The notes under the pieces are model-generated. The model had not been told where the DNA came from and did not search any database. It saw only the letters and a list, made by a program, of their open reading frames with translations. Both the position numbers and the translations under genes were made by a program. 64,000 nt of DNA, taken from assembly GCA_963698885.1 (NCBI GenBank), contig CAVOSJ010000002.1, positions 369,169 to 433,168 on the forward strand. The letters are read 5' to 3'. The DNA is from Nitrospirota bacterium (GTDB lineage Bacteria > Nitrospirota > JACRHJ01). This document shows, piece by piece, positions 2,971 to 59,480 of this stretch (within the stretch, counting starts at the first letter, position 1; each line of letters opens with the position of its first letter).

Positions 2971-3402
2971 ATGTCCGGCAAAACGGTTTTATTAGTCCTG
3001 GGTCTGCTGTTTTATTTCGCGGGCGAAGCTTACGCGGGGAACGCCTTTATAATAGAGCTGAAAAACGGGAACTGCATCGACGCGAACTCCTGCACTGTCG
3101 AAGGGGAAAAGCTGGTCCTGCGCTATCCGCTGGGCGAGGCGGAGATAGAGCTGGGTTCTGTAAAAAGGATTCTAATATCGGGGCCTTCGCCAATGGAGGG
3201 GCCTTTCCGGACTAAGGGGCAACCAGAATTTGGGCATCTTTTGCCCGTAAAAGGGCCGGCTAAATCAGCCGGGGGGATGACGGCGTCCGGCGAGCCGGTG
3301 GAGATATGGAATGCGGATGAGAAAGAGAAGGAACATGACAGGCTGATTGAGAAGCTGGCGGAGGCGGAGGCAAACGAAGAGGAACATGATGAAAGTAAAT
3401 GA
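2971..3402 (+). CDS. Small secreted protein, paralog A (signal peptide, acidic C-terminal tail)
   Basis: Start at MSGKTVLLVLGLLFYFAGEAYAG after a GGAGGAG RBS. Core LKNGNCIDANSCTVEGEKLVLRYPLGEAEIELGSVKRI is shared with the next ORF. Confidence 0.6.
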   Translation: MSGKTVLLVLGLLFYFAGEAYAGNAFIIELKNGNCIDANSCTVEGEKLVLRYPLGEAEIELGSVKRILISGPSPMEGPFRTKGQPEFGHLLPVKGPAKSAGGMTASGEPVEIWNADEKEKEHDRLIEKLAEAEANEEEHDESK

Positions 3403-3491
3403 TATGCGTTGATATTTGTTCTTGACTATTTCACAGGAGCGGTTATATTACACCAAACACGAATCATTCTTAATCCGCGGTAAAATTTGTC

Positions 3492-3959
3492 ATGCTGAAA
3501 TTTGTATTGCCTGTACTTTTTTCCCTGTTTTTTTTAGTGCCCCCCGCATTCGGACAGGAAAAATCCTGCGTCGTAACCCTGAAAAACGGGAACACTATAA
3601 ACGCCGATTCGTGCCGCGTCAAAGACGGCCGGATTTATTTGAAATACCACCTCGGCGAAGTATCTTTCGACCTGTCGAAGGTTAAATCCATAACTGGCGG
3701 AGACGGCAGTTCCAATTTTCTACAGGACAAGGGGAAAGACCAGCCCCTCCGGACTGCCCGATCAGCCTCTATGAACGCGCAGCCGCCCGAGGAAAACTCC
3801 CCGGCCCAGGTAGAAAAAGACCATAAATTCAATGACTTCTTTGACAAATACTGGCAGGCCGACGAGAAGGGGCAGGCGGAGATGGACAAGCAGATGGATA
3901 AAGTATTCTCCGATTATTTCGATGACTCGGACTCGGACCAGCCATCCCAAGACAATTGA
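3492..3959 (+). CDS. Small secreted protein, paralog B
   Basis: Signal peptide MLKFVLPVLFSLFFLVPPAFG. Core LKNGNTINADSCRVKDGRIYLKYHLGEVSFDLSKVKSI is homologous to paralog A. D/E-rich tail. Confidence 0.6.
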   Translation: MLKFVLPVLFSLFFLVPPAFGQEKSCVVTLKNGNTINADSCRVKDGRIYLKYHLGEVSFDLSKVKSITGGDGSSNFLQDKGKDQPLRTARSASMNAQPPEENSPAQVEKDHKFNDFFDKYWQADEKGQAEMDKQMDKVFSDYFDDSDSDQPSQDN

Positions 3960-5888: not shown

Positions 5889-8299
5889 TCAAATCAAAAA
5901 GGCCGGCGAGGAATCGCCGGCCTTTCTTTTATAATTCGAGCGTGCCCCTCTTTTTAATCCACGTCCTGCAGCAGCTTCATCTGTTTTTCCTGGTCTATGA
6001 CCGCCTTCGCGGGAACAGGGGGCGGCGAAGAGGATACCGGCTGCGCCTCGGGCATTGCGGAAACGTACTGGGTGGGAGCCGTACCTTTTTTGAATACCTC
6101 GCTTATCACCTTCTCGACTCGCGCCGGTAGGTAAAAGCCCCGTGGCTGCGTCTATCTCCACGAAATCGATGCCGTCCGGGATGGTGAAGTTATCAGGCGG
6201 ATATGCCGCCACCGCCGGGGCCATGAACCGTACCCATATGGGAAGCGCGGCCCTTGCGCCCGATTCGCCGTGCCCCAGGCCCTTGTCGTCGTCATGGCCC
6301 ACCCATACCCCGGCTACGAGGTTGGGGGTGTATCCGACGAACCATGCATCCTTGTAATCGTTGGTCGTCCCGGTCTTCCCGGCCACCGGCCTGCCGAGCG
6401 ACGAAGCCAGCGTGCCCGTCCCGCGCTGCACCGCATCTTGAAGCATGCTGGTAACCTGATAAGTCGTCTCGGTGGACAGGACCTGATCGTGCGTCGATTC
6501 GTGTTCCTCCAGCACATGGCCGCTTCTGTCGGATACACGCAGGATAGTAACCGGGTTTATGTCGTAGCCGCCATTGGCGAATGAGCAATAGGCCGTGGTC
6601 AGCTCAAGGGGTGTGACGCTTCCGGAGCCCAGCGCGAGGGTGAGGTTCCGGGCGAACGGCCCAGTCATCCCGAGCTTTGTCGCCAGGTCGATGACCTTCT
6701 GTACGCCGACCTCATGGAGAAGCTCTATCGTAACGACGTTCCTGGAGTAAACCAGCGCGTCGCGCAGACGGGTAGGCCCGTAATATTCCCTGTCGTAGTT
6801 TGCGGGTTTCCAGGTGTCGTTGTCGTAACTTCGGGGCTCGTCGTTTATGATGCTCGCCGGGGTAAAGCCGTTTTCCATCGCGACGGCATAGACAAGCGGC
6901 TTGAAAGCCGAACCCGGCTGCCTGTGGGCCATCGTGGCATGGTTATACTCGCTCCTCTGGAAATCCACACCGCCGACCAGTGCCTTCACCTTGCCCTCCC
7001 AGGGGTCGATGGCGACCAGCGCGGCCTGACAGACCGGTTCCTGTTCCAGCGTAAACGCGAGGCGCTTCGCCTTATCGAACCCTTTGGGTTTAACCTCGAT
7101 AACGTAACCCGGCTGAAGTATATCCGAAGGCTTCTTCTTTTTCTGGTCTCTGCCGGCGGCCCATTTCATGTCCGCCCACGAAAGGTACCCTTTGCCGCTG
7201 CGCGTAAATATCACCGCGCCCTTGTCATCTAACTTTAAGACGGTTGCCGCCACGACCTCGCCCGGCTGGAAGGAGGATGCTTTCGCCTGCTTTGTTTCCA
7301 GAAGCTTCTCGACTTCGTTCAGGTCTTTCTTAGCGACAGGCCCGCGCCAGCCCTGCCGTTTTTCCAGGTCCCGCACTCCCGACTCCACGGCCCGGTTTGC
7401 CGCGACCTGCATGCGGTAATCGATCGCCGTCTTTACGGTCAGGCCTTCCACATAAACCTTGTCGGCCCCGTATTTCTTCTCCAGATATATCCTTATCTGC
7501 TCGACCAGGTACGGCGCGACCTCCTCGTTCGCCCGGAGGTTCTTCAGGACAAGCGGCTGGGCCATCGCCACGCTCGCCTGTCCGCGGGAGATAAGCCGTT
7601 CCTCGGCCATCCTCGTCAGCACCAGCTCCTGGCGTTTCTTCGCCGTCCCATATCGTTGTAAGGCGAATAGCCCTGGGGGGAGCGGATAAGGCCCGCTATC
7701 ATGGCGGATTCGGCAAGGCTCAGGTCGCCTACGTGCTTTCCGAAAAACGTCCGTGCCGCCATCTCGACGCCGTATGCGCCGTGGCCGAAATATATCTTGT
7801 TTAAATACAGCTCCAGTATCTCGTCCTTCGTCAGGCTCTGCTCGATTTTCCGGGCGAGCATCATCTCCTTGAGCTTTCGGCTGACGCTCTTTTCCGGCGT
7901 CAGGAAATAAACCTTGGCGAGCTGCTGCGTGATGGTGCTCCCGCCCTCCTTGAAGCTTAAAGAGATGACGTCCTTCACCATCGCGCGCGCGATGCCCTGG
8001 AAGTCCAGTCCGCCGTGCTCATAGAACCGGGCGTCCTCGATAGCCACCACGGCCTTCTTAAGGCTGTCCGGCATCTGCGAAAGCGGCACGAATATCCCCC
8101 GGTCAACCTTTATCCGGCCAATCAGGTGGTCGTCTTCGGAGAACACCTGCGTGCCGATGGGGGATTTATAGTTCTTCAGCGAGCTTATCTGGGGCAGGTC
8201 GTGTTTTACGGTATTTATCACCGCATAGCTTGCCCCGCCGGTAATGGCGATCAGGGCTATAACTACGAATACTATTATCTTTATCTTTCTTATTGTCAT
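5889..8299 (-). CDS. mrcA: Penicillin-binding protein 1A (GT51 transglycosylase + transpeptidase), apparent frameshift near 7616-7622
   Basis: N-terminal ORF 7616-8443 carries the GT51 motifs (EDARFYEHGG, GGSTITQQLAK); start trimmed to MTIRKIKIIVFVV (TM anchor). ORF 5889-7622 continues with the transpeptidase domain. The two overlap by 7 nt at a G6 run. Confidence 0.8.
5896..5930. terminator. Rho-independent terminator (bidirectional)
   Basis: aaaaaGGCCGGCGAggaaTCGCCGGCCtttctttt. The last codons of the minus-strand PBP1A gene lie inside the stem. Confidence 0.6.
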
Positions 8300-10369: not shown

Positions 10370-10543
10370 ATGTCCATGAAATGGCTGGTCAGCGAACGTT
10401 GCAAAGGCTGCCCAAAGTGCGGGCCGATGGGCGCACGGGACCTCTACGGGCTCGGCCCGGGGGTGTATCCGGCGGACAGGTTCCCCAAGGAGCCGGCGCA
10501 CTTCGGCTGCAACTGCTCAAAGATAGTTCTGCCTGCCTGAACG
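10370..10543 (+). CDS. Small Cys-rich protein (58 aa), hypothetical
   Basis: GGGAGG RBS 5 nt upstream of ATG. Sequence MSMKWLVSERCKGCPKCGP...HFGCNCSKIVLPA. Below the ORF-track length cutoff; a longer overlapping frame (10381-10656) has no RBS. Confidence 0.35.
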
Positions 10544-11011
10544 GCTTCCGGAATGTCGATACCCGGCCCATGCCGCCTCCGAGTCCCCGGACTCGATTTT
10601 TCTGGCCTGCGGCCTGTAACGTAATCAGCGGGACCAATTTCCCCCCGTGCTATTAATAGCCCCTCCCGCTTTGCGTCGGAACCCGCCGCTAATTAATCTC
10701 TTTTTCATATATAAATGGCTTATTCGACGATTACTCGTCGGGTATCAATTTGAGCCGTTTTTACGACGTCAGGGGCGGTTTACGAGGGGTTAGAGAGGGG
10801 TTTACGAGCTATAGTTTTTTAAAGGGGAGGACTAAGGTTTTATCCTTATTAAACAAATCGTTACACCGCATATTTTCCTTTTTTCAGCGGCATGAAAATC
10901 CACGTATCGACACTTGCAAGTAATTGAAAAATATATGTTCTCTTTCGCCTCCTCGCGGAGTTTCCGCGTCCGGGCAGGCATTAATTAAAGAGTTATTTAT
11001 TCGTAAAGTAT

Positions 11012-13090: not shown

Positions 13091-13239
13091 TGTGTATGAC
13101 TTCTCCTTGGTGCGACATATCCGATAAAGATAATCTTGAGCGTCGGATTTGTCAATAATTTTCTTTTGCGATAGGGACTTATACCATTGACAAAAGGGCC
13201 GCAATGATATGATAATTAACACAGGCCAAAAGGACTCCG

Positions 13240-14280
13240 TTGAAACGAAACAATAAAATAACTATCGTCCTCATAATTGCCGCCATAATAGGCATCGCGG
13301 CCTATATCTTCCTTTATTCCGAAAGGGAGAAAGGGCCGGAGTCCGTCCGGACGACCGGAGCGGTGGAGGGGATAGAGACCAATATTTCCTCCAAGATCGC
13401 CGGGCGTATCACGTTTATCGGGGTTCGCGAAGGGGACGCGGTTAAAAAAGGCCAGCTCGTAGCCCGGATAGAGAACGAGGACCTCCAGGCGGCGCTTAAG
13501 GCGAGCCAGTCCGCTCTCCGTGCGGAGGAGCTTACGCAGACGTCGCTCGGGCAGGTGGTGGCAAACGCCGCCGACCAGGTAAAGGTGGAGCGGGCGGACG
13601 TGGAGAACCAGATCGCCCAGGCGCGCCGGGCACAGTCCCAGCTTGCCTTGGCGGAACTGAACCTCTCCCGCGAAAAAGAGCTGTATAAAAAGGGGATAGT
13701 GGCAAAAGCGGACCTGGATAACGCCCAGACGGCCCGCGATTCCGCAAAGGCGGATGTCGATGCGGCGGGCGCGTCGATAAACCTTGCGAAGTCCAAGCTC
13801 GCTGCGAACAAAGCGGGTCTTGACAAGGCGAAGGAGGACGTGGCGACTCAAAGGGCGCGCGTGAGCCAGGCGGGCGATAACGTAAAGTTAAGCGAGGCGC
13901 AGCTTTCATACTCCGATATATTCGCGCCGTCGGACGGTGTGGTGGAATACCGGCCAGTGGAAGAGGGCGAGGTCGTCGCGCCGGGGACGAGCATCCTGAC
14001 GGTCGTGGACCCCAGTATCCTCTGGGTGCGGTTTGACCTGGAGCAGAGGTTCATAACGAAGGTGCGCGTGGGGACAAAGGCGCGCGTATGGCTGGAGCAC
14101 CATCCGGATATGGTTTTCGACGCAGTGGTATTCGACGTAGGGCGCGAGGGCGAGTTCGCGGTAGAGAGAGACGTCACCCGCGGCCGCCAGGACATCAAGA
14201 CCTTCCGCACGAGGATAAAAATTAACGACCCGAAAGGGATACTCAAGCCCGGCATGACGGTGATGGTGGAGATACCGTGA
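13240..14280 (+). CDS. HlyD-family periplasmic adaptor (membrane fusion protein) of an ABC-type exporter
   Basis: N-terminal TM anchor, long coiled-coil (QAALKASQSALRAEE...), C-terminal beta-barrel motifs (GMTVMVEIP). Followed by ABC ATPase and ABC-2 permease genes. Confidence 0.8.
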   Translation: MKRNNKITIVLIIAAIIGIAAYIFLYSEREKGPESVRTTGAVEGIETNISSKIAGRITFIGVREGDAVKKGQLVARIENEDLQAALKASQSALRAEELTQTSLGQVVANAADQVKVERADVENQIAQARRAQSQLALAELNLSREKELYKKGIVAKADLDNAQTARDSAKADVDAAGASINLAKSKLAANKAGLDKAKEDVATQRARVSQAGDNVKLSEAQLSYSDIFAPSDGVVEYRPVEEGEVVAPGTSILTVVDPSILWVRFDLEQRFITKVRVGTKARVWLEHHPDMVFDAVVFDVGREGEFAVERDVTRGRQDIKTFRTRIKINDPKGILKPGMTVMVEIP

Positions 14281-15266
14281 AACCAGAACTTTCTATAATA
14301 ATCCCTCAATACAAGACCGAACAGTTCATCCGTTTGTGCTTGAGATCCTTGCGAAAATATTCTCGCAATCCTATACAGGTCATAGTTGTCGATAATAACT
14401 CATGCGATGGCTCGATCGACTATTTAAGAAGCGTCCCCTGGATTGACCTGATAGAGAACAAAAGTGATTTAGTCGGTATACGGGCACACAGGGAAGCCAT
14501 TGATTTAGGAGTTGAAAAGGCACGGGGAGACTGGATATGTCTTTTTCATAGTGACACAATAGTTTTAAAAGAGGCATGGGACGTGTCTCTTCTTGAAATT
14601 ATAAAAAAAGGAGGCGCGGTCGGCCTTTCTACTTATATTCGAGACGTAAATCAATTTGAAAATTTTTTTATTAAATGTTCGAGAAGGTTTTGCGAATTTA
14701 GGACTGGCATCAAAAGAAAAATCAACCCAAACAAGGGCAAAGATAAAATAATGTCTTATTGTTTCTTCATTAAAAGGACTATTTTATCGAACTCCGGTTT
14801 CGTTTTTTCTAAAGAAAAGATGGACGTAGGCTCGGAGTTATATCATGAGCATATTAAAGATAAGTATCCTTTCGTAATATTGGGATATAGAAAGCTGTCG
14901 CCTTTTTTTTGGCATACAAGTAATGTAACATCGATCATTACAGGACAGCTTGCTGGACAAAAGGATGTAAACAAATATAAAAAAGGGAAAAAAAAAAACA
15001 AAAAAACAAAAAAAAATTTGGGAGACAAAAAAGAGCTGGAGACCGAGGCGCGCAAGCTGGAGAAGGAGCGGGACATGTACCGCGCGAAGGACCCGTACTT
15101 CGACCTGGGCGAGGCGCTCCTGCAGATAGCAATCGTGCTTGCTTCCATATCCATACTCGCGTCGTCCGGTCCGGTATTCATCGGCTCGCTGGTCTCGGCG
15201 GTATTGGGGACGTTCCTTATGGTGAACGGTTATTTCATGTTTTTAAGTATTCCATTTTTTCATTAA
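14277..15266 (+). CDS. Chimeric ORF: low-GC GT2 glycosyltransferase N-domain fused in frame to a high-GC C-terminal 2-TM segment
   Basis: GT2 motifs SIIIPQYKTEQF and VIVVDNNSCDGS. DNA ~14285-15030 is ~38% GC against ~62% in the flanks. Poly-A/Lys tract at 14990-15020. Confidence 0.5.
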   Translation: MKPELSIIIPQYKTEQFIRLCLRSLRKYSRNPIQVIVVDNNSCDGSIDYLRSVPWIDLIENKSDLVGIRAHREAIDLGVEKARGDWICLFHSDTIVLKEAWDVSLLEIIKKGGAVGLSTYIRDVNQFENFFIKCSRRFCEFRTGIKRKINPNKGKDKIMSYCFFIKRTILSNSGFVFSKEKMDVGSELYHEHIKDKYPFVILGYRKLSPFFWHTSNVTSIITGQLAGQKDVNKYKKGKKKNKKTKKNLGDKKELETEARKLEKERDMYRAKDPYFDLGEALLQIAIVLASISILASSGPVFIGSLVSAVLGTFLMVNGYFMFLSIPFFH

Positions 15267-15284: not shown

Positions 15285-16290
15285 ATGCCTTCAGCAGTTG
15301 AGACTTTTGACATCCGTAAAAACTTCGGCGAACTGACTGCGGTCAAAGGCATCAGCATCCAGATTAACGAGGGCGAGTTCTTCGGGTTCCTGGGGCCGAA
15401 CGGCGCGGGAAAAAGTACGCTGATACGGATGCTGACGACGGTCCTGAAGCCCACTTCCGGTACGGCGAAGGTAGGGGGCTATGACATAATAAAGGAGCCG
15501 GATGATGGTGCGCCGCTCCATCGGCGTCGTCACGCAGAACATGGCCTCCGACCTGGACTTGACCGCCCGCGAGAACATGGACATTTTCGGGAAGTTCTAC
15601 GAGGTGCCCAAAAAAATCCGGCAGGAGAGGGTTGAGGAACTGCTGGAGCGGGTGGGCCTGACGAAGAAGGCGGACGAACTGGCCGCGACTTTCTCCGGCG
15701 GGATGAGGCGCAGGCTCGACATAGCGCGCGTGCTGGTGCACAGGCCCGCGATGCTTTTTCTTGACGAGCCGACGTCCGGCCTGGACCCGCAGAGCCGCCG
15801 CGTAGTGTGGGAAATGCTCCAGGGCTTCATGAAAGACTACAACATGACTGTCTTCCTCACTACGCACTACATGGACGAAGCGGAGTCGCTCTGCACGCGC
15901 GTCGCCATCATCGACTACGGGAGCATAATAACGATGGGGACGCCGGACGAACTGAAGGCGGGGATACCGGGTAACGACATCGTGGTAATGACTCTATCCG
16001 GAGACCCGGAGAAGGTGCGGGGGCTGGCGGAGGCGGAAGGCTACGTGCATAAGGCCCAGCTTGAGGATAACGACTTGCGCTGTTTTGTGGATAGCGGAAG
16101 TGAAAACGCGCCGAGGCTTATGAAGCTTGCCACGGAGGCGGGCGCGAAAGTTAAAGCCGTCTCCATAAAAAACCTCTCGCTGGAGGACGTTTTTATCCAT
16201 TACACCGGCCGCTCCATACGCGAGGAAGAGTCGAAGAAGGTGAACCTGTTCCTGGGCGCGGGCGTGCCGTCTAAACTGGGGAGGGGCTGA
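15285..16290 (+). CDS. ABC transporter ATP-binding protein, apparent frameshift near 15500
   Basis: Walker A GPNGAGKST in ORF 15285-15635. ABC signature FSGGMRRR, Walker B LLFLDEPTSGLD and H-loop in ORF 15502-16290 in another frame. Confidence 0.8.
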
Positions 16291-17405
16291 TGCGCCGGGT
16301 TTACGCGGTACTCGAGCGCGATATCCGCAAGTTCTCCCGGAACCCGGTCATCATGGTTATGGCCGTGGTCATGCCTATAGCGTACCTCATCATCCTCGGC
16401 AACTCCTTTCAAGGGAAGCTGAAGGGCCTGCCGGTGGCAGTGGTGAACCAGGACGACGGCTACTGGGGCCAAAGGCTGGACGAACGCTTGAAGGCAGTGA
16501 CGATCGGACCCAAGACGGTGACGATAACGTATCTGTCCGACCAGGGCGCGGCGGTGGACGGGGTGCGGGAAGGAAAATATAAAGGGGCGATAATCGTGCC
16601 CCCGGATTTCTCGCGCAGGATGGCGCTCGGCACGGGGCCGGAGGTCGGCATATTCGTGGACAACACGGACCAGATATCCGAGGGCGCCCTGACTGACGCG
16701 CTGACCCAGGCGGTGAACTCTATCCGCGAGACGCATGTGCCGATCCGTCCGGACAGGACGGTCGTGCAGGCCAGGCGGGTGGAGCTGTACAAGCAGGTGG
16801 ACTACGACCAGTCGCTGGTGCCTGGCGTCGTCGTGATGGCGATGTTCATGGGGACGATGATAACCGGCGTATTCAACCTGGTGATGGACCGGTTCCTGGG
16901 CGTGGACGAGGCGATACTGATGACCCCCGTGACGAAGATGGACATTGTCGGGGGCCTTGTAATCTCAGGGTTTGTAATCACGCTCATCATGGCTACGACG
17001 GTTTATATCGTCAGCGCATTGATAACCGGCATAACGATATTCGGCGGCGTCCTGAGGTTCATGGGAATACTCTCCGTGCTCGCGCTGACCACGCTGGGGC
17101 TTTTAAGCATGATGTTCCTGATGCTTGGCCGGGCGAACCATCCCAGGATAGTCGGAGTGTTTTCCGGGTTTATGAACGTGATATTCTTTTTCCCGTCGGG
17201 CGCGGTATATCCGGTGCAGAGTTTCCCCCGGTGGCTTCAGGTATTCGCGAAGGTGAACCCGGAATACTATGCCGTCCATGCGCTCAAGAGTATAATGTTT
17301 AAAGGAAACCTGCTGTCCGCCGTTTACGGCGACATTTTGTTCCTGTTTTGTTTTTTATGCGTTATGATGTCGCTGGCGGTGGTGACATTCAAAAGAACAT
17401 TATGA
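16290..17405 (+). CDS. ABC-2 family transporter permease
   Basis: 371 aa. N-terminal TM, large periplasmic loop, then 5 TM helices typical of ABC-2. Start overlaps the ATPase stop. Confidence 0.8.
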   Translation: MRRVYAVLERDIRKFSRNPVIMVMAVVMPIAYLIILGNSFQGKLKGLPVAVVNQDDGYWGQRLDERLKAVTIGPKTVTITYLSDQGAAVDGVREGKYKGAIIVPPDFSRRMALGTGPEVGIFVDNTDQISEGALTDALTQAVNSIRETHVPIRPDRTVVQARRVELYKQVDYDQSLVPGVVVMAMFMGTMITGVFNLVMDRFLGVDEAILMTPVTKMDIVGGLVISGFVITLIMATTVYIVSALITGITIFGGVLRFMGILSVLALTTLGLLSMMFLMLGRANHPRIVGVFSGFMNVIFFFPSGAVYPVQSFPRWLQVFAKVNPEYYAVHALKSIMFKGNLLSAVYGDILFLFCFLCVMMSLAVVTFKRTL

Positions 17406-17419
17406 AAGGAGAGTAATAG

Positions 17420-17959
17420 ATGCCATTCGATATCGTGGTGCTGGATGAAAGTTTCAAGTTTATCGGCGAGGTCCGCTTAGACCCGGGAGTCCACGGGATG
17501 CTCTGGCGCAAGATCGTGACACTGGAGGACTACCCGAACCTTGGAAAGGCCAGGGACGACAAAGAGGACGTAATCTTCGCGCCGGAAGAGGTGCCGGCGT
17601 TAATCCGGGAAGTAGAGAAACTGGAGGAGTACGTCGCCGGCGATAAGTTGATGTCGGAGGATGTGAAGGGAAAATGCCTGACGTTCGTCAGAAAGCTTAA
17701 AGAGCTTTGCCTTATCGCCGCAGAAGCAGAAGAGGAGCGTGGATTTCGTTTCGGGGGATTAGGCGGCTTTAGCGAGCGCCTTTTTAAGCTCTTCCGGGTC
17801 TTCGATAGGCGCGGCGCACGTGAAGCCTTTGCACAGATATGCCGCGGCCTTGCCGGCTGCTTTATAGCCCCGCCCGGCAATCTCGGCCTCGTCGCGCCCG
17901 AAGTCCATCAGCCGGATTACGCGCCTCGGGATAAAAGATTTTCCAGCGGCATCGGCTAA
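17420..17959 (+). CDS. Hypothetical protein; 3' ~200 nt overlap the convergent YyaL gene
   Basis: AAGGAG RBS before the ATG. The N-terminal ~110 aa look protein-like. The C-terminal part overlaps the minus-strand gene and may stem from a frameshift. Confidence 0.35.
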   Translation: MPFDIVVLDESFKFIGEVRLDPGVHGMLWRKIVTLEDYPNLGKARDDKEDVIFAPEEVPALIREVEKLEEYVAGDKLMSEDVKGKCLTFVRKLKELCLIAAEAEEERGFRFGGLGGFSERLFKLFRVFDRRGAREAFAQICRGLAGCFIAPPGNLGLVAPEVHQPDYAPRDKRFSSGIG

Positions 17960-50429: not shown

Positions 50430-52514
50430 CTACGTTGCACTGGCCGGACTGGTGGTGTCGCCTGAGTGCGCCTCTATTTCCTTTTTCATACCAGGCTGTC
50501 TGCCAGTTATAATCTGAGACATATATGCTGATAACAAACCACCCACGCCGTCCCCGCCCTGCACAAGAAGGTCGGGGGTTATTTTTATATTGCCTGCTGA
50601 AATCTGCTTGGCTATCTCTATGGAAGTAACAGCCTGCTGGCCGAGGGCCTTGTTCTGCAACTCGTATGCCTCGGCTGTGGATTTGCCCACGGCCAGTATC
50701 CTGGTCGCCTCCGCTTCGCCTTTAGCCTTTATCCCGGCAGCTTCGCCTTGGGCCTTCAACCTTATGCTTTCCCCTTCGCCTTCCGCGTTCTTTATGGCCA
50801 TCTGTTTGTTCTGTTCGGCCACCTTGACGCCTATCTCGGCCGTGACGAGCGCGGTCTGCTGGTTGGCCTCGGCCCGGGTCTTTTCGGTCGCTATGCGCGT
50901 CTGCTCGGCCTGTTGCTCCGCCTCGTACATTGCGCGCTGCTGTTCGGCGATTATCTTCTTGGTTTGCGTGTCCATGAGTTCCTGCGGCAGGTTTATCTGG
51001 CATATAAGCACGGACACGCACTCCACATGGTACTTCGCAAGCTCCAGCTTTGTACGCTCCTCTGCCTTCCGCTGTTCCTCCTGGCGGTCCTGCATGAAGT
51101 TCATCGCGGACGTGGAAGATGCCTGGTTGCGGAAACTCGAATCTATCATAGGATGTATGACATGCAGTATCAGGTTGTCAATCGAGCCTATCTTTGAGAC
51201 CATGTATGGCGCCTGGTCTGGGCGGACCCTAACCACCACTTTGACCGAGACGTCTATCGGGAACCCGTCTTTAGATATTACCTTGAGAGGGTCGAACCGG
51301 GTCTCCTGCGAGTTGTCCCAGTCTATTGTGATGTTGGTTGTGTCCAGGATGTAGGCTATGTATGCCCGCCTGTTCAGGTAGTACCTCCCGGGGCCGGCCA
51401 CCTCTTGCTGTATGCCCCGAAATCCCTTGGGCACTACATAGCGCTCGAAGCCCTTGCGTAGACGAGTCTCTATCTTCTCCGCAGTCTCATCGCTGATCTG
51501 CTCGTCTTCTACCCGTACTTCAGCAGTTTCTGCTATCGCGGTTGGCTCTGCCCCGACGTTCGATACTAAGACAGCGACCTGCCCCCGCTCTATCACTGCC
51601 ACGTCATCAAGCTCTATTTTGAACATCAGCGGGTTGATGTAATAGGTGCCGGGTCTGAGTACATCGAACTGCGGGCCCCTCTCGCCTCCCTCGGCCAGAA
51701 AACTTGACGCATCTTGGTAATCGTTATGGTTTTTCACGGACTTCGCTACGTACTCGCTTTCCGGTAGGGGGTCGCCGTCGAGGGCGGTTACAAGCCCGAC
51801 TTTGTTTGCGGGTATTATGGTTGCATCATAGACCTCGACTTTGAAGAGAGCGGTGTTTATACGGTAAGTGCCGGGCAGGAGGATGTCTATCTGGGGGCCT
51901 TTCTGCCCCTGGTTGTTCAGGAAGGCCTGGCCGTCCTCGAATTTCGAGTGTCCCTCGACATGCTTGGCGAGCAGCCTGCCCACCGGTATAGGCTGCCCGT
52001 CCATTGAGGTCACCAGCCCTACCTTACCCTTGTCTATAATTATCGCGTTGCCCTTTATCATTTTGAAGAGTACAGGGTTGATCCTGTAAGTACCAGGCGG
52101 CAGCATCTGTATTTGTGGCCCCTTCTCGCCCCCGTGGGCCAGGAAGGCCTCTCCGTCCTGAAACGAGTTATGCCCCTCGACCACCCTGGCGAATATTTTT
52201 CCCGGAGGCACGGGGTTGCCGTCAATCGACTCCATCAGCCCTACCTCCAACTCCCCGATGGAGGTAAACGGGTACTTAGTCGCGCGGTACAGGAAAGGGA
52301 TAAGGATGTGAAGGCCCGGACCCAGGGTCTTCGCCTGGATGCCTACCTCGCCTTCCATGGCCACGACGCGCCCCTGCGGCATGCCCCGTCCGATGTATCT
52401 CCTCTCCAGCACCACCAGTTCCCTGCCGCCGACAACGACAACGGACATATAAATCAGGAATAATGCCGCAAGGCCGATCATTGCGCAAACTGCATACACA
52501 AAGTACGCTTCCAT
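50430..52514 (-). CDS. Flotillin-like SPFH/band-7 family protein with three ~55-aa tandem repeats and a long E/A/Q-rich coiled-coil
   Basis: N-terminal TM. SPFH N-terminal motif GPGLHILIPF. Repeats GNPVPPGKIFARVVEGHNSFQDGEAFL... (x3). C-terminal EA-rich flotillin-type region. Confidence 0.75.
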   Translation of the reverse strand: MEAYFVYAVCAMIGLAALFLIYMSVVVVGGRELVVLERRYIGRGMPQGRVVAMEGEVGIQAKTLGPGLHILIPFLYRATKYPFTSIGELEVGLMESIDGNPVPPGKIFARVVEGHNSFQDGEAFLAHGGEKGPQIQMLPPGTYRINPVLFKMIKGNAIIIDKGKVGLVTSMDGQPIPVGRLLAKHVEGHSKFEDGQAFLNNQGQKGPQIDILLPGTYRINTALFKVEVYDATIIPANKVGLVTALDGDPLPESEYVAKSVKNHNDYQDASSFLAEGGERGPQFDVLRPGTYYINPLMFKIELDDVAVIERGQVAVLVSNVGAEPTAIAETAEVRVEDEQISDETAEKIETRLRKGFERYVVPKGFRGIQQEVAGPGRYYLNRRAYIAYILDTTNITIDWDNSQETRFDPLKVISKDGFPIDVSVKVVVRVRPDQAPYMVSKIGSIDNLILHVIHPMIDSSFRNQASSTSAMNFMQDRQEEQRKAEERTKLELAKYHVECVSVLICQINLPQELMDTQTKKIIAEQQRAMYEAEQQAEQTRIATEKTRAEANQQTALVTAEIGVKVAEQNKQMAIKNAEGEGESIRLKAQGEAAGIKAKGEAEATRILAVGKSTAEAYELQNKALGQQAVTSIEIAKQISAGNIKITPDLLVQGGDGVGGLLSAYMSQIITGRQPGMKKEIEAHSGDTTSPASAT

Positions 52515-53004
52515 ATTTATCCCCTTTTATCGATATGATGGCCAGAAAAGCTTCTCTTTGATAAAATTTGGTTCCTGACAGTGCAAGACTACATCAAGTT
52601 ACTGTACCGGTCAATAATAATCCCCTGATTTCCAAGGGCAATTATCTGTTGACAGGCATGCAATAATGCCCACTTTTGCTGTTAGATTTCACTTGAGACC
52701 TTACGGGAAAAGAGATTTTCATTTGAACAGAACACATGCGTCTTTTCAAGAATTTACAGATGCGGGGGAGGCAAATTTGGCTCTAACTTTCTCTATTAGC
52801 TTAATAGAATTACACGTGGTTACAATGGTAGACTATGGATGTTCAATTTGAAAAACGCAAATTCTTTACATAGATAATTCAATGTGTTGTGAAGTTTATC
52901 AAATCAGAATTCCGAGGTTTATATTCTCCAATCACCACCTTTTCCCATGTGGTCCAAGGCTTCTCTCATCAACACGATAGTAAACGAATTCATATCTTTA
53001 TGCT

Positions 53005-54372
53005 TCACTGCGTCAGCCTTAGCAGCTGACTTGCTATCTCGTCAAAGGCCTGTTGGAGTTCCGAGTCATCCGCCGCAAAGGCATAAATCCCGGTCGGTTG
53101 GTCAGCGCCATGGTTGGGCGCCGAGGGGTCGTTGGCCATGTTCTTAAGGATGGCGTCGCCTGTTTCGTGGTTCCCCCAGCTTTTCTGTGAGGTCAGGAGT
53201 GCGTCCGGGCCGTTCAGGCCGAGCGTGTAGACGTATATGCCCGACGCTCTGGCGTTGTTCGCCATCTCTTCCGGGAGGTTCCTTGCCGCATTGTTCACGT
53301 CTTCAAAGCCTTTATTATTGTCATTCACGTAAGTTGCATTAACGGGCCTCGCGGCCATGCCCGTCCCCGACGGCGGGCCGAGCACGTGGTACAGGCCGTC
53401 GCCTACACCGGAGCCCAGGTTGAAATATGCAGGCAGCGTCGTTACATACGAGTAAATTGGGTTTTGGATGTACCCCGACAGCGTAGTGTCAAGTACGCCT
53501 GTCTTATAAAGGCCAAAGGGGTCTCCGGGGGTGCCGTCGACGGTACAAATAACCCCTGTTTTTTGTATAGACGGTTTCCATACGAAAGTGGACGAGAAGG
53601 AGTTTGGCGAGCCGTCGGAGAAGAACACTATGACCCTGCAGCTTGAACGGCTCGACGCGGGTATACTGTCAAGCTGGGCCCTGGCATCCCAGAAGGCCTC
53701 GGTGAAGTTGGTATGGCCGTTGAAGGTCATATTATTTATGTCGTTCACTATTTGAGTTTTATTAAACCCCCTTGTTGAGGTACTTATTGGGTCCTTGATA
53801 ATGGCGCCCTCGGCGAAGAGCACCAGGCCCACCCTGTCCGAGGTTGCATTGAATCTGTTGATGAACGATACAGCCGCCGCCTTCAGAGCCGGGTTGTCGT
53901 TGCCCGACCTGATCAGCGAGCTTGTGGTGTCGATGACAAAGACCATGTCGAGGTCCTTCTTGACTGCCTGCGCCGTGGAGCTCGCGTTCACCCTATTTAG
54001 ACCTACGATCTGCATGAAAAATGTTGGCGCCGTCGCGCTTGCGGACACGGTGACCTGTATCTGCCCCGGACCGGGGGTGTTGGGCGAGACGTTTATTGTC
54101 GGGGCGGAGGGGGTGGAATTGAGGTATCCTGCGGGGTAATTGGATTTAAAACGCGCCGTGCCAGCGGCTATTGCGGCTGCATAGCCACCGGAGCTGTCGC
54201 CAGTCGCGTTGGCGGCCGCCAGGGCGGCCGCGTCCATGGCGCTACTCAGCTTGGCCTTTACCCCGTAGGCGATCCCCCCGTCTATGGCTAATCCTGCAAT
54301 GGCCAAAAGAACTACCATTGACAGGGCTAAGAAGACTAATACCTGCCCATCTTCTCTTCCTTTTGTTTGCAT
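53005..54372 (-). CDS. TadE/TadG-like N-terminal domain + von Willebrand factor A domain protein (Flp-pilus-assembly TadG-like)
   Basis: N-terminal TM with TadE-like LALSMVVLLAIAGLAIDGG. vWA MIDAS DMVFVIDTTSSL...FFSDGSPN. Confidence 0.65.
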   Translation of the reverse strand: MQTKGREDGQVLVFLALSMVVLLAIAGLAIDGGIAYGVKAKLSSAMDAAALAAANATGDSSGGYAAAIAAGTARFKSNYPAGYLNSTPSAPTINVSPNTPGPGQIQVTVSASATAPTFFMQIVGLNRVNASSTAQAVKKDLDMVFVIDTTSSLIRSGNDNPALKAAAVSFINRFNATSDRVGLVLFAEGAIIKDPISTSTRGFNKTQIVNDINNMTFNGHTNFTEAFWDARAQLDSIPASSRSSCRVIVFFSDGSPNSFSSTFVWKPSIQKTGVICTVDGTPGDPFGLYKTGVLDTTLSGYIQNPIYSYVTTLPAYFNLGSGVGDGLYHVLGPPSGTGMAARPVNATYVNDNNKGFEDVNNAARNLPEEMANNARASGIYVYTLGLNGPDALLTSQKSWGNHETGDAILKNMANDPSAPNHGADQPTGIYAFAADDSELQQAFDEIASQLLRLTQ

Positions 54373-54767
54373 GGTTCTCCTTTTTGCACTTTAAAATCTC
54401 GCAACGGTATAAATCTTTCACTAATTTTTTTTGTTCATAATGTGCGGTCTTCCGATAATAAAATATCAGAGATAGTCATTATTGTCAAATTCACATTCCT
54501 ATATAATACTGGTTATTATGATGATTTGATAAGGTCCGAATGCGTAGTTATTATATGAGCTAACATCATAGCAATGCTAAATTGAATAAGACCCACCCGA
54601 GTAAGAACCATTTGAATCAGGACCATTTTGAATTAGCACCAGTCCAGCCTATCCTGGAAGCTTCAAAACACCCGGCGATTGCGCCGCTTTTCAGTTGACT
54701 TTACATGCCAGGGTTGTTACCATTTTACACGACTTCCCAATTGCCCGACCCCCTTTTCGGCGGCATT

Positions 54768-54947
54768 ATGAGACCGAAAGAACTCTGGATTTTCCTCTTT
54801 TTCACAGGGACATTGGCCCTTGGCTGGCCGTTTCTTGAGATATTTGCCTCAAAGCTCCCCATCTACCTTTTTACCGCCTGGATCTGCATAATAGCATTAA
54901 TCTATATTGTCGTAAAATACGCGGCAAAAGAGGAAGACGAGGGTTAA
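54768..54947 (+). CDS. DUF4212 small membrane protein (SSS-transporter accessory subunit-like)
   Basis: Start trimmed to MRPKELWIFLFF. Two TM helices. Lies immediately upstream of an SSS-domain protein, as DUF4212 typically does. Confidence 0.55.
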   Translation: MRPKELWIFLFFTGTLALGWPFLEIFASKLPIYLFTAWICIIALIYIVVKYAAKEEDEG

Positions 54948-57878
54948 TTGATCGGTTCCGGCATCCTCTTCGCAATAATCCTGGCCTATCTCATGTTGCT
55001 CTTCGTCCTGGCATATTTTGCCGAGACGATGGAAAAACAGGGTAAAAGCATCGCATCAAATCCATACGTCTATTCCCTCTCGTTCGCCGTTTACTGCACC
55101 TCCTGGACCTTCTACGGCAGCGTTGGAATGGCCGCGACTTCCGGCCTTTCATTCCTTACTATCTACCTTGGCCCCACCTTGATGGCTACGCTCTGGTGGC
55201 TGGTACTGCGCAAAATCGTCGTGATAGCCAAGGAACAGGGTATAACAACTATTTCAGACTTCATCGGTTCCCGGTACGGAAAATCACTGTCCCTGTCCGC
55301 GCTGGTAACGGTCGTCGCGGTGGTGGGCATAATGCCTTACCTGGGCCTCCAGATAAAGTCCATCATCAGCACCTACCAGATAATCTCCGGACAGACGGAG
55401 CCAAGCTTGACTGCGGGCTGGTTCATCGTCTTGTTCGTCGGGATATTTGCCATAATCTTCGGGGCGAGAAAACTGGACTCTTCCGAGCGGCACGAGGGGC
55501 TTATATTCGCCATAGCGTTTGAGTCCCTGATCAAGCTTGTCGCATTCGTGGCGGCGGGCGTATTCGTCACCTACGGGCTATTCGACGGCTTCGGCGATAT
55601 CTTCGGACACATCGGGAAAATTTATCCGCGCCTTCTTTCAATCGGCGCCGGCGGCTCCACAAGCCTCACGGAATGGACCTCGCTTACATTCATGTCCATG
55701 ATGGCGATAATGTTCCTGCCCAGGCAGTTCCACGTAGCCGTAGTGGAAAACTCAAGCAAAAAGCATATCCTGAAGGCGATGTGGCTGTTCCCGCTTTACC
55801 TCTTTATTATAAATATATTCGTACTGCCGGTCGCATTCGGCGGGCTCCTTCGGGGCGGGACGCCGGCTCAGGCGGACAGCTTCGTCCTGTCCTTGCCACT
55901 CTCCCAAGGGAAATCAGCCCTGGCGCTGCTGGTTTTCCTTGGCGGCTTCTCCGCCGCGACAGGGATGATAATAGTGGAGTCCCTGGCGCTATCCACGATG
56001 GTGATGAACAGCCTGGCCATGCCTTTTCTGATAAGGTTCAACCGCTTTCGCAGTTTCCCGTCCATAGTGCTGAATACAAAGCGTCTTGTCATCCTCGGGT
56101 GCGTATTCATCGGGTATCTCTTCGCCGTATCGATAGGCAGGATATATTCCCTGGCGGACATGGGCCTTAACTCATTTGAGGCCGCGACTCTATTCGCGCC
56201 GTCTCTGCTCATAGGGCTCTACTGGAAGGGAGGGAACAAAAAAGGCGCGGCTGCCGGATTTGTGGGCGGCTTTATCGTCTGGTTTTATACCCTTCTCCTG
56301 CCGGAGTTTCTGAAGGCGGGCGTAATCCACTCGGAGCAGTTAAAGCAATTATTCGCCACCTCGGCATTTAATCCCGCCGGCCTTTTCGGGCTTAAAGGCC
56401 TGGACCGCTGGAGCCACTCCCTTTTCTGGAGCATGTTCATAAATCTCGGTCTCTATTTCGGCGTATCGATATTCACGAAACAGTCGCAGGAGGAGGAGAA
56501 GCAGGCGCTGATATTCGTGGAGTCGGTAAAGATCGGAGGGGCGGAAGGCGGGCAGGCGCGCGGCCTCCAGACGGTGGACGAGATAAGGGACCTCCTGGGG
56601 CGCTATATAGGACGCACTGAAGCGGCGGCGGCGCTGGAAGGCTTCATTGTAAGCCGGGGCATAGACAAATCCGCCATGCAAAAAGAAGAGGTCCTGAAGC
56701 TGCGGGACGAGGCGGAGAGGATTCTCTCAGGGGCCCTGGGCTCCGCCATAGCCACGCTTATCCTCCGGAAAAAGCTTGTAATGACGGAAGAGCTGTCGAG
56801 TTCCATACGCCAGATAAGCCATACCCTGAAACTTTCGCGTGAGAAACTGGAGGAAGCTAACAGGGAGCTTAACTTCCTGAAGGAGTTCAGCCAGAATATA
56901 ATCGAAAGCGTGCCGCAGGGTATCGCCACTATGGACCGCGATTTCAAGATTACATCCTGGAACAGGGGGATGGAAAACCTGACGGATGTAAAAAGGGAAA
57001 ATGCGCTGGGAAGGAGCGTGCAGGAATTTCCCATATGCCTGGGGCCCGGAACACCCCCCGGGATGCAGGGAGGCGAGCATATATGCGACACAAAGCCCGG
57101 TTATACCTTGAAAGTATCGTCCTCTCCGTTCAAGGGCCCGCAAGGAGGCTACGTCCTGATGATAGAGGACATTACCGAGAAGAAGCGCCGGGAGAGCGAG
57201 CTTTTGCAGGCCAGCAAATTCGCCAGCATCGGAAAGCTTACCGCGGGGATCTCGCACGAGATAGGGAACCCGCTTGCCTCGATATCCTCGCTCGTGCAGG
57301 AGATACAGGAGGTGGGACAGCCCGAGTTCACCAGCGAGGCACTGGATATAATCAACCACCACATCGAGAGGATTGTCCGCATCGTGCGGAGCCTTGGCGA
57401 TTTCGCAAGGCTTTACAGCCCTGAGAAAATCCCGTCCAACATTGCCGAAGTGCTTGACAGCACCCTGAACCTTACCCGGTATGACAAGAAGTTCAAGAAG
57501 ATAGAGATAATGAAAGACATAGAATTAACCGGACAGATAAAGATGAACCCGGACCAGATACAGCAGGTCTTTTTAAACCTGATATTAAATGCTCTGGATG
57601 CGATGCCGGACGGCGGCAGGCTCACGATAACGGTGAAGGACGCGGGATCTGACGTAATCATAATATTCAGCGATACGGGGATCGGGATGGACAAGGATGC
57701 CGTGGACAGGATATTCGATCCGTTCTATACGACGAAATCGCCCGGAAAGGGCACCGGCCTCGGGATGAGCATCTGCTGGGGGATAATAAACGAGCACGGC
57801 GGCACAATCAGTGTCGAGAGCAAAAAGGGGCGCGGGAGCACCTTTACCATTAGGCTTCCGAAGAAAAAGGAGGAGTAA
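54948..57878 (+). CDS. Hybrid sensor: N-terminal sodium:solute symporter (SSS, ~13 TM) domain fused to PAS, HisKA and HATPase_c (CrbS/CbrA-type histidine kinase)
   Basis: TTG start. SSS-like TM core. PAS region MDRDFKITSWNRGMENLT. H-box ISHEIGNPL. N, G1 and G2 boxes (LNALDAMPDGG, DTGIGM, GTGLGMSI). Confidence 0.85.
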   Translation: MIGSGILFAIILAYLMLLFVLAYFAETMEKQGKSIASNPYVYSLSFAVYCTSWTFYGSVGMAATSGLSFLTIYLGPTLMATLWWLVLRKIVVIAKEQGITTISDFIGSRYGKSLSLSALVTVVAVVGIMPYLGLQIKSIISTYQIISGQTEPSLTAGWFIVLFVGIFAIIFGARKLDSSERHEGLIFAIAFESLIKLVAFVAAGVFVTYGLFDGFGDIFGHIGKIYPRLLSIGAGGSTSLTEWTSLTFMSMMAIMFLPRQFHVAVVENSSKKHILKAMWLFPLYLFIINIFVLPVAFGGLLRGGTPAQADSFVLSLPLSQGKSALALLVFLGGFSAATGMIIVESLALSTMVMNSLAMPFLIRFNRFRSFPSIVLNTKRLVILGCVFIGYLFAVSIGRIYSLADMGLNSFEAATLFAPSLLIGLYWKGGNKKGAAAGFVGGFIVWFYTLLLPEFLKAGVIHSEQLKQLFATSAFNPAGLFGLKGLDRWSHSLFWSMFINLGLYFGVSIFTKQSQEEEKQALIFVESVKIGGAEGGQARGLQTVDEIRDLLGRYIGRTEAAAALEGFIVSRGIDKSAMQKEEVLKLRDEAERILSGALGSAIATLILRKKLVMTEELSSSIRQISHTLKLSREKLEEANRELNFLKEFSQNIIESVPQGIATMDRDFKITSWNRGMENLTDVKRENALGRSVQEFPICLGPGTPPGMQGGEHICDTKPGYTLKVSSSPFKGPQGGYVLMIEDITEKKRRESELLQASKFASIGKLTAGISHEIGNPLASISSLVQEIQEVGQPEFTSEALDIINHHIERIVRIVRSLGDFARLYSPEKIPSNIAEVLDSTLNLTRYDKKFKKIEIMKDIELTGQIKMNPDQIQQVFLNLILNALDAMPDGGRLTITVKDAGSDVIIIFSDTGIGMDKDAVDRIFDPFYTTKSPGKGTGLGMSICWGIINEHGGTISVESKKGRGSTFTIRLPKKKEE

Positions 57879-59233
57879 TGGCGGGCACGATACTGATAGT
57901 TGACGACGAGGAGACCTTGCGGGAGTCCATGGCGCGGCTCCTTACGCGAGAGGGCTATTCGGTAAGCACGGCCGGCACGGGAGAAGAGGCCATGGAGGCG
58001 CTCAAAAATTCCGCGTTCGACCTGGTAATCTCGGACATCTTCCTGCCGGGGATAGACGGTATAGAGGTACTCCGCCGGCTAAGGGAAAAAAAACCCGACC
58101 AGCTGGTGATACTGATGACGGCCTATGCCTCCCTGGAGACGGCGGTGGATGCGCTGCGGGCCGGGGCATATGACTACATCATGAAGCCCATAATCCATGA
58201 GGAGGTGAAGCTCCTCATAAGGAGGGCGCTCAGGCAGCAATCGCTCATGTCGGAGAACAGCCTGCTCCGCAAACAGATAGAGAGAGAATACGACTTCAGC
58301 CACATCATCGGCGTCTCGCCCAGCACCAAAAAGGTACTGGAAGAGGTAACCAAAATCGCCGACGCCAGGAGCAGCGTGCTTATCCTTGGCGAGACGGGGA
58401 CAGGAAAGGAACTTATCGCACGCGCGATCCATTTCAACAGCCGCCGGAGAGAAAAGGCCTTTGTGCCGATAAACTGCTCCGCCATCCCGGACACGCTGCT
58501 CGAGTCCGAGTTGTTCGGGCATGTGAAAGGCGCCTTTACCGGGGCCATGACCGCAAAAAAAGGACTCTTCGAGGAGGCGGCGGGCGGCACGGTTTTCTTA
58601 GACGAGATAGGGGAGATGAGCGTGATGCTCCAGTCAAAGCTGCTTCGGGTACTGGAAGACCAGGAGGTCCGTCCCGTGGGCGGGATACAGTCCACAAAGG
58701 TGGACTTGAGGTTCATCATGGCTACTAACAAAGACCTCCAGAAGGCCGTGCGGACACGGACGTTCAGGGAAGACCTCTTCTACAGGATCAATACAATAAA
58801 TATCAGCCTCTTTCCTCTCCGGGAGCGGCAGGAGGACATACCGCTCCTCGCCAGGCATTTTCTGGCACGGCTTGGAGCGGAGTTTGGAAAGCCGGTCAAA
58901 GCCATCTCCGACGACACCATCGCCTTGTTACTTGACTACAGTTGGCCCGGCAATATCCGGGAGCTTAGAAATATAATAGAGCGGGCGGTGCTGATTGCCG
59001 ATTCCGATATCATAACCCCCGAACACCTGCCCGAGAACATGCGTCAGAAAAATCCAGCCATGCTGACTGACTCTGTGGACAGGGCACTCTCGATAGAGGA
59101 ATATATAAAGGCCGTCATAACGCGATACCAGGACAGGTTGAGCGAGCAGAAGATTGCGGAGCTTTTAGGTATTACCAGGAAATCTCTCTGGGAGAAGCGT
59201 AAGAGATGGGATATCCGCCGAAACCGTGAATAA
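57878..59233 (+). CDS. Sigma-54-dependent response regulator (NtrC family: receiver + AAA+ + HTH)
   Basis: Receiver DDEE...DLVISD. AAA+ Walker A GETGTGKE and GAFTGA motif. ESELFGH. C-terminal Fis-type HTH. 1-nt overlap with the kinase stop (TAATG). Confidence 0.9.
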   Translation: MAGTILIVDDEETLRESMARLLTREGYSVSTAGTGEEAMEALKNSAFDLVISDIFLPGIDGIEVLRRLREKKPDQLVILMTAYASLETAVDALRAGAYDYIMKPIIHEEVKLLIRRALRQQSLMSENSLLRKQIEREYDFSHIIGVSPSTKKVLEEVTKIADARSSVLILGETGTGKELIARAIHFNSRRREKAFVPINCSAIPDTLLESELFGHVKGAFTGAMTAKKGLFEEAAGGTVFLDEIGEMSVMLQSKLLRVLEDQEVRPVGGIQSTKVDLRFIMATNKDLQKAVRTRTFREDLFYRINTINISLFPLRERQEDIPLLARHFLARLGAEFGKPVKAISDDTIALLLDYSWPGNIRELRNIIERAVLIADSDIITPEHLPENMRQKNPAMLTDSVDRALSIEEYIKAVITRYQDRLSEQKIAELLGITRKSLWEKRKRWDIRRNRE

Positions 59234-59461: not shown

Positions 59462-59480
59462 TCTGGCATTCTTGTTGCTA
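59462..59480 (+). promoter_or_regulatory. Sigma-54 (-24/-12) promoter
   Basis: cTGGCATtcttgTTGCTa matches TGGCAC-N5-TTGC(A/T), ~70 nt upstream of the satP-like gene. Confidence 0.6.

Follow-up and report, generated by a model that had tools for sequence, protein, structure and literature searches.

How did a predicted glycosyltransferase of very low GC content come to lie within a high-GC exporter operon of a Nitrospirota bacterium, and how did it come to run on, in a single reading frame, into half of another gene? The stretch of DNA in which we met this question (the window, as we call it from here on) is 64 kb long. A sequence-only reading had offered two answers: a recent horizontal insertion that made a chimeric gene, or an error of assembly. 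Comparison with related loci has led us to an answer in two steps. Two unrelated genes are joined in the hybrid ORF, which is probably a recent product of illegitimate recombination or deletion. The locus in which it sits is a real accessory-gene hotspot.

An HlyD adaptor, a DrrA-like ATPase and an ABC-2 permease make up the layout of the YbhGFSR/DevBCA-like exporters. Genes for all three are present here, in one operon, the ATPase with its DrrA C-terminal domain (Table 1), and their order agrees with that in the related loci L009, L013 and L014. What sets the operon apart from those systems is a DUF4337 gene and a variable slot between adaptor and ATPase, and an ATPase frame that is broken. 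The HlyD adaptor is 95–97% identical to its relatives P0121 and L009, and a promoter-like site 24 nt upstream of the HlyD start is a candidate, and a probable one, for the promoter of the operon. The adaptor and permease frames are intact, whereas at about 15503 an inserted nucleotide breaks the ATPase frame in two. This base is absent from four relatives, and without it the gene encodes 334 aa, the usual length in relatives. A second private 1-nt insertion, at 17718, lengthens a 113-aa gene, and its removal gives back a C terminus of the L009 type. Private indels are also present in the related loci L009 and L003. Together with the two insertions in the window, these make consensus indel error plausible, and such error is what the pattern of private indels suggests.

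Table 1. Features of the exporter locus, in positions of the window.
Feature	Position	Strand	Description
Candidate operon promoter	13187..13216	+	TTGACA, 18-nt spacer, GATAAT; 11/12 matches; consensus match only
HlyD-family membrane-fusion (periplasmic adaptor) gene	13240..14280	+	346 aa, intact; Pfam HlyD_D23, HlyD_3, Biotin_lipoyl_2
Hybrid ORF	14277..15266	+	329 codons plus stop; 3'-truncated GT2, A-rich filler, 5'-truncated DUF4337
GT2 part	14277..14980	+	Codons 1-234; GC 0.37, GC3 0.38; 94.6% nucleotide identity to L001 529-1232
A-rich filler	14981-15020	+	40 nt; A5 G3 A11 C A7 C A9 T3; encodes KGKKKNKKTKKNL
DUF4337 part	15021..15266	+	C-terminal 81 codons plus stop; GC 0.53, GC3 0.71; 95.5% nucleotide identity to L002 1077-1322
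ABC transporter ATPase, DrrA-like	15285..16290	+	Split; ORFs 15285..15635 and 15502..16290; ABC_tran on both, DrrA1-3_C on the second
ABC-2 family permease	16290..17405	+	371 aa, intact; Pfam ABC2_membrane_3, 113 bits; equal length in L009 and L013

The sequence-only reading had picked out a low-GC trough, an open frame with GT2 motifs passing through it, and a poly-A, lysine-rich tract at its end, and all of these are there. In 200-nt windows GC falls from 0.62 at 14000–14199 to 0.33–0.44 across 14200–15000, and climbs to 0.555 at 15000–15199. The lowest 700 nt anywhere in the 64 kb lie at 14333–15032, at 0.356 (mean 0.55, sd 0.045; next lowest 0.411), which makes the trough the strongest in the window, and GC3 in the GT2 part is 0.376 against 0.69–0.81 in HlyD, the DUF4337 part, the ATPase and the permease. 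One ORF runs through the trough and out of it. Its GTG start shares bases with the stop of HlyD (GTGA), and a Shine-Dalgarno-like GGTGGAG lies upstream. Some details of that reading needed redrawing. The left change in composition does fall at the HlyD stop; the right boundary is at 15020/15021, not at about 15030. What had been counted as 240 codons of GT2 is indeed an open GT2 frame, of 234 codons, followed by 14 codons of filler. The high-GC tail with two TM helices does have its hydrophobic helices, and turns out to be the C-terminal half of a DUF4337 gene.

We arrived at this three-part anatomy from BLASTP, from the points at which DNA homology breaks and from the lack of any source for the filler. 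The window can be aligned with L001, a locus with the GT2 gene, as far as 14980, and with L002, a locus with DUF4337, from 15020/21 onwards, which fixes both breakpoints. Among 5.8 billion proteins searched, relatives of the hybrid form two disjoint sets, stand-alone GT2 proteins of 255–260 aa and stand-alone DUF4337 proteins of 181–195 aa, and no protein in that search spans both halves.

By sequence, fold and motifs the first part belongs to the GT2/GT-A glycosyltransferases, and we predict that it is one. The Pfam family PF00535 (Glycos_transf_2) matches residues 6–160 of the hybrid at 62.3 bits (cut-off 23.3). The closest relative, P0001, is 89% identical in amino acid sequence and 24 residues longer; others are 44–58% identical over residues 1 to about 234. 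In a 26-member family alignment all 32 invariant columns are retained, among them D39-N40...D44 and, at the DXD position, H91-S92-D93. AlphaFold2 models a GT-A domain with pLDDT of about 86–98 for residues 1–210 (means of 10-residue blocks), dropping below 70 after about 220, and Foldseek gives probability 1.00 for SpsA, WrtF, RmlT and GtrB. The stand-alone subfamily (P0001–P0040, for example P0024, a 'glycosyltransferase family 2 protein' of Desulfobacca acetoxidans) is like the hybrid in its GT-A fold and invariant residues, and unlike it at the C terminus, which in the hybrid is foreign. Compared with the 258-aa relative it stops some 24 codons short and has no stop codon; gone too is the C-terminal helix, which ends in a near-invariant SLD motif, so the GT2 part is not a full-length member of its subfamily.

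Nothing about the GT2 part looks worn. Its alignment to L001 is gapless over 704 nt and stops at 14980; the two copies differ at 5.4% of nucleotides (dS 0.18, dN 0.027, dN/dS 0.15). At those of the 13 amino acid differences that can be polarised, it is the window that more often has the residue of the family majority. The gene was under purifying selection before the fusion event and bears no sign of decay, which fits a young truncation.

The DUF4337 part is equally sound and equally incomplete. PF14235 matches at 73.9 bits (cut-off 27) over profile positions 73–161 of 161 only; the first 100 codons, which include an N-terminal hydrophobic helix, are gone. Residues 249–329 of the hybrid correspond to residues 101–181 of P0041 (181 aa) with two of the 81 positions differing, and comparison with L002 gives a dN/dS of 0.06, with no decay. 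What remains is the same as in the corresponding half of P0041: the end of a coiled coil and two hydrophobic helices. In the literature searched DUF4337 turns up twice, both times in passing, and without an assigned function. In more distant relatives that have a DUF4337 gene, HlyD and ABC genes are not adjacent to it.

Between the two lies the filler, AAAAAGGG-A11-C-A7-C-A9-TTT, about 80% A, from which the hybrid ORF takes its lysine-rich tract KKGKKKNKKTKKN. The only A/T homopolymers of at least 9 nt in the 64 kb are those inside it. It recurs neither in the rest of the window nor in any of the related loci that we fetched. We looked for its source in the missing GT2 tail and in the missing part of DUF4337, and found similarity no better than that of composition-matched shuffles. 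The idea that it is a diverged GT2 tail joined at an AGACAA microhomology fared no better, as 71% of such shuffles fit the L001 tail equally. Across all the loci compared, the window alone has the right junction. Whether the hybrid frame stays open depends on how long the runs A11, A7 and A9 are. A phase-variable contingency gene would toggle its frame through changes in the length of a homopolymer, and tracts of that sort are present here. Of the other two frames past the junction one meets a stop about 40 codons on and the other is an open nonsense frame, and a join in frame is a 1-in-3 outcome of chance. If the hybrid protein is made, peptides that span its junction would come, for example, from NLGDKKELETEAR.

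The locus makes more sense once its relatives are laid beside it. Six related Nitrospirota loci have the same HlyD, ATPase and ABC-2 permease genes and, between HlyD and ATPase, five layouts other than that of the window, so that seven loci whose flanks are 90–97% identical show six layouts. The simplest is HlyD-DUF4337-ABC (L003). Two loci, L002 and L013, have a methyltransferase gene (MT) in addition, giving HlyD-MT-DUF4337-ABC. To this L009 adds a gene X directly behind HlyD (HlyD-X-MT-DUF4337-ABC; about 204–214 aa, the start codon being uncertain, GC 0.33, without a family match). L014 has instead a gene Y (287 aa, GC 0.345, a weak TIR hit) and a second DUF4337 gene, in the order HlyD-Y-MT-DUF4337-DUF4337'-ABC. 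Finally, L001 reads HlyD-GT2-ABC, with a full GT2 gene of 258 aa and GC 0.36, and of DUF4337 only the last 12 nt or so are left. All the layouts diverge at one point, the HlyD stop codon. L009 is the GTDB representative 'Nitrospirota bacterium MFD00991.bin.2.105', syntenic with the window and about 96–97% identical to it over some 10.5 kb of aligned flanks. It was the one syntenic Nitrospirota MAG that scans of genomes and metagenomes with the hybrid brought up, together with L002. Neither those scans nor the protein search turned up a second copy of the fusion or an ancestor of the form HlyD-GT2-DUF4337(-ABC).

The sister loci are littered with scraps of genes. There are 5' fragments of DUF4337 between cargo and MT in L009 and L014, and the second DUF4337 of L014 is preceded by fragments of ABC (5'), HlyD and MT (3'). 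Illegitimate recombination has often left its scars at this exporter locus. Content varies between strains at one site, with cargo at GC 0.33–0.37 against flanks at about 0.57, and the slot behind the HlyD stop is a small hotspot of recombination, in which low-GC cargo has been taken up time and again and illegitimate joins have been left. Hotspots of horizontal transfer, or 'islets', between conserved core genes are a general concept in bacterial genome organisation. The slot resembles them in its conserved flanks, in its strain-variable low-GC cargo and in having no tRNA within 64 kb. It differs in its place within an operon, right at a stop codon, and in holding only one to three small genes, coupled to HlyD or close behind it. 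Looking for signs of a mobile element, we found no repeats flanking the segment, and no tRNA, Rfam family or reverse transcriptase motif in the 64 kb. PADLOC gave no hits that would point to a defence function for the hybrid or for X.

When and from where did the GT2 gene come? It is horizontally acquired cargo: five of the seven related loci lack it, its GC3 is extreme, and the wider family lives elsewhere. Outside Nitrospirota its stand-alone relatives follow a 206-aa methyltransferase of the RMNT_CmcI type in sugar clusters (L004–L008), unlike the window and L001, in which the gene follows HlyD. We considered whether the slot methyltransferase of L002 and L009 might be that CmcI-type partner, which would imply an MT-GT2 ancestor; the two have no significant similarity, and the slot methyltransferase has native GC3. 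A plasmid donor was also considered, and the best plasmid relatives are at most 36% identical. The window and L001 have exactly the same left junction, with the GT2 start overlapping the HlyD stop. As L001 is an independent Logan short-read assembly, that junction is real and predates the chimera. Nor is the arrival brand new, given the 5.4% nucleotide difference, dS of 0.18 and dN/dS of 0.15 between the two copies.

Set against L001, the flanks differ at 8–9.5% of nucleotides (dS 0.24–0.33). Of the informative sites, 34 of 35 in the left flank and 91 of 96 in the right one have alleles of the L009/L013 type, and this holds to within 33 nt of the left junction. A recent import from an L001-like donor, anchored by homology in HlyD, finds no support in view of the sites on the left. 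The GT2 gene may have reached the L009/L013-type clade by ancestral presence and repeated loss, or by exchange of a cassette with very short anchors.

Seen against this history, the proposal of a recent horizontal insertion that made a chimera is partly right. Comparing syntenic HlyD-ABC operons, as had been advised, shows that the site differs in every relative and that the GT2 gene of L001 is equally low in GC. The cargo is compositionally foreign and found in only some close relatives; it is not recent, and only the fusion on the right is young or private. The ORF does join two genes unrelated to each other, and the chimera comes from a second event that removed the GT2 tail and stop together with the first 100 codons of DUF4337. 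The GT2 segment is not an in-frame insertion inside another gene: it sits between the HlyD stop and a 5'-truncated DUF4337, with a left junction like that of L001.

The explanation we favour, and think reasonably likely, is of an accessory hotspot that took up a low-GC GT2 gene horizontally, followed by a deletion or illegitimate join specific to the window that gave an in-frame hybrid, likely a young scar. The hotspot behind the HlyD stop of an HlyD/DUF4337/ABC-ATPase/ABC-2-permease operon would first have received the GT2 gene by horizontal transfer. Then a second event would have stripped off the last 24 or so GT2 codons with their stop, whatever spacer there was, and DUF4337 up to its codon 100. 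It may have been the deletion of about 0.4 kb or more, or an illegitimate join made while strains recombined. The ends would have been joined through the 40-nt filler, in frame as assembled. The resulting 329-codon ORF would be transcribed together with the operon, and its translation would be coupled to that of HlyD. Illegitimate recombination facilitated by homology, and deletion joins that take up filler DNA, form a known class of mechanism. The case here is like them in having one clean side, one non-homologous join with filler, and scars in sister loci; it is unlike them in a filler that is unusually long and rich in A, and in showing no detectable donor-type anchor in the left flank. We infer that the fusion event was biological, whether illegitimate recombination or deletion, and that the hybrid is a young by-product and not a selected fusion, one in which the function of DUF4337 would be lost and the GT2 enzyme left without its conserved C-terminal motif.

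Several observations count against this explanation. The right junction is in the window alone, and a filler without a source is not what ordinary microhomology joins leave. An ancestor of the form HlyD-GT2-DUF4337-ABC was not found in the collections searched. The frame hangs on the lengths of A runs in a window that has two private gene-breaking insertions. Lastly, the flanks are of the L009/L013 type, yet the GT2 gene is otherwise found only in the more distant L001.

The first rival is that the right junction is an artefact of assembly or consensus. Two co-occurring strain haplotypes, one of GT2 type and one of DUF4337 type, or a chimeric read, would have been merged, and the A tract would be low-complexity noise; in the genomes themselves one would then expect a complete GT2 or a complete DUF4337. 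No protein or locus elsewhere matches the junction, and the filler, for which no source was found, holds the sole long A/T runs of the 64 kb. Two private single-base insertions lie within about 2.2 kb, the removal of either restores a full-length product, and the private indels of the MAGs L009 and L003 are typical of long-read consensus errors. The flanks, too, are L009/L013-like, around a GT2 that is otherwise only L001-like. Against this, the 3' end of GT2 and the middle of DUF4337 share no sequence at which an assembler could switch, and a haplotype of the L001 type runs from GT2 directly to the ATPase and so has nothing to pull in half a DUF4337 gene. L001 gives independent confirmation of the left junction, the GT2 alignment to that locus has no gap in its 704 nt, and other assemblies of the exporter locus contain real scars of recombination of this kind. 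Moreover, relatives have both of the fused genes at this very locus, which a random misjoin would not give, and an assembly chimera is the less likely for it. All told, we regard an artefact as unlikely.

The second rival accepts the fusion as real and makes it functional: an intact catalytic GT-A domain tethered to the inner membrane beside the exporter by a lysine-rich linker, a coiled coil and two TM helices, with slippage at the A runs perhaps tuning the proportions of fused and unfused protein. The GT-A domain is modelled with pLDDT above 90 to about residue 220 with its invariant residues kept, the join is in frame as assembled, and the operon tolerates a GT2 gene without DUF4337, as L001 shows. 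From the sequence, the ORF would be co-transcribed from the operon promoter with no intervening terminator and would start behind the Shine-Dalgarno-like GGTGGAG. Runs of at least nine A cause transcriptional slippage. Among the Foldseek matches is GtrB, and the hybrid recalls the polyprenyl-phosphate GT2 enzymes of that kind (PDB 5EKP, 9NYC) in layout only: an N-terminal GT-A domain, helices and two C-terminal TM helices. Identity to them is 15–16%, the rmsd over the tail is above 20 Å on a low-confidence model, and the TM helices of the hybrid come from an unrelated gene. Further points weigh against function. Chance alone would put one join in three in frame, the near-invariant SLD motif has been lost, the fusion is conserved nowhere among the 5.8 billion proteins, and the ATPase downstream is frameshifted in the same genome. 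A functional fusion therefore strikes us as very doubtful.

The most speculative form of that idea, in which an accidental join at the hotspot has given birth to a functional gene, with GtrB-like tethering to the membrane near the ABC-2 exporter and slippage on the A runs setting the ratio of fused to unfused product, we consider a long shot. A variant still more exotic would have the heteropolymeric filler copied from a bacterial poly(A)-like RNA tail in an RNA-templated join; no reverse transcriptase was found in the 64-kb window. Last, and highly improbable, is the suggestion that the low-GC segment is native to the operon, its AT bias being usual for glycan-modification genes, with no horizontal acquisition at all: GT2 relatives elsewhere also lie below their flanks in GC (0.39–0.47 against 0.49–0.60) and L001 has the same gene at the same site, but most of the related loci lack it, the wider family is not linked to HlyD/ABC operons and follows a CmcI-type methyltransferase, its GC3 (0.38) is far from the 0.69–0.81 around it, and other strains have at this site the low-GC genes X and Y, which are unrelated to it.

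What, then, does this small locus have to teach? It is a clean, strain-resolved case of cargo turnover in a hotspot of a few genes inside an operon. Such turnover leaves truncated and fused frames behind, and this one would pass in automatic annotation for a two-domain 'glycosyltransferase'. Should the right junction be an artefact, it would point to a problem with the consensus of the assembly, on top of the two frameshifts by single bases. In both cases the 329-aa protein ought not to be passed on as a genuine GT2-DUF4337 architecture. A join that is real and expressed would show us domain accretion caught at birth.

The slot directly 3′ of the HlyD stop codon holds two further, unrelated low-GC genes in sister genomes that share the HlyD/ABC operon. 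Cargo X (locus L009) has no Pfam, NCBIfam or PADLOC match, and the sole match for cargo Y (locus L014) is a weak one to a PADLOC TIR-effector (E 9e-4). The slot may gather defence-like cargo. Both loci also carry the scars of recombination. In L014, the 5′ end of DUF4337 recurs as a 42-nt copy, with ATAAAAAAATAG after it, between cargo Y and the methyltransferase gene. The first DUF4337 gene of this locus is followed by pieces of three genes (the 5′ end of the ABC ATPase, part of HlyD and the 3′ end of the methyltransferase) and then by a second, divergent DUF4337 of 227 aa. In L009, a degraded scrap of the DUF4337 5′ end separates X from the methyltransferase.

Features of the window and of related loci, with coordinates
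Feature	Location	Description
ABC ATPase	window 15285-16290	two ORFs; single extra base at about 15503
Small gene	window 17420-17959	179 aa; insertion at 17718
Cargo X	L009 4556-5200	about 204-214 aa (start codon uncertain); GC 0.33
Cargo Y	L014 6058-6921	287 aa; GC 0.345; GC3 0.24
Recombination scars	L014 6935-6990 and 8212-8430; L009 5200-5225	
MT-GT2 pair	L004 5381-6771; L005 5384-6777; L007 5375-6768	

No stretch of the window is lower in GC than the GT2 segment, all of which falls inside an ORF. The next-lowest 700-nt minima (52389-53088, 54281-54980 and 58937-59636; GC 0.41-0.43) fall mostly in gaps between long ORFs rather than in coding cargo. Upstream of the glycine-zipper lipoprotein gene, window 10381-11000 is apparently non-coding and has no Rfam match; compared with L009 it shows many small indels, one of them a 15-nt insertion at 10574.

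Single bases break two reading frames in the window. In the ABC ATPase the sequence is GGATGATGG, against GGAGATGG or GGATGAGG in relatives; the extra base is missing from all four of the related loci L001, L002, L003 and L009, and its removal yields a protein of 334 aa, as long as those of relatives. Either the gene became a pseudogene very recently or the consensus is in error here. The small gene at 17420-17959, whose counterpart in L009 and L013 encodes 113 aa, is extended because of one extra C, and in its longer form overlaps a convergent gene for a 580-aa thioredoxin-domain protein; taking out the C regains the L009-type C-terminus (...QKQKRSVDFVSGD). Related MAG contigs have frame-breaking indels of their own, which split HlyD in L003 (4851-6135) and, in L009, shift a lipoprotein (3169-3501) and the DUF4337 C-terminus (about 6440-6472). 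This points to long-read-type consensus errors running through these related assemblies and calls for caution over single-base features of the window.

Outside Nitrospirota, the 255-260-aa GT2 family consistently has a 206-aa RMNT_CmcI methyltransferase gene upstream, overlapping the GT2 gene by 1-4 nt in L004-L006 and ending 5 nt before it in L007 and L008. Near these MT-GT2 pairs are genes of the dTDP-sugar, C-methyltransferase or NeuB kind, and the conserved pair probably serves in the decoration of a deoxy-sugar glycan.
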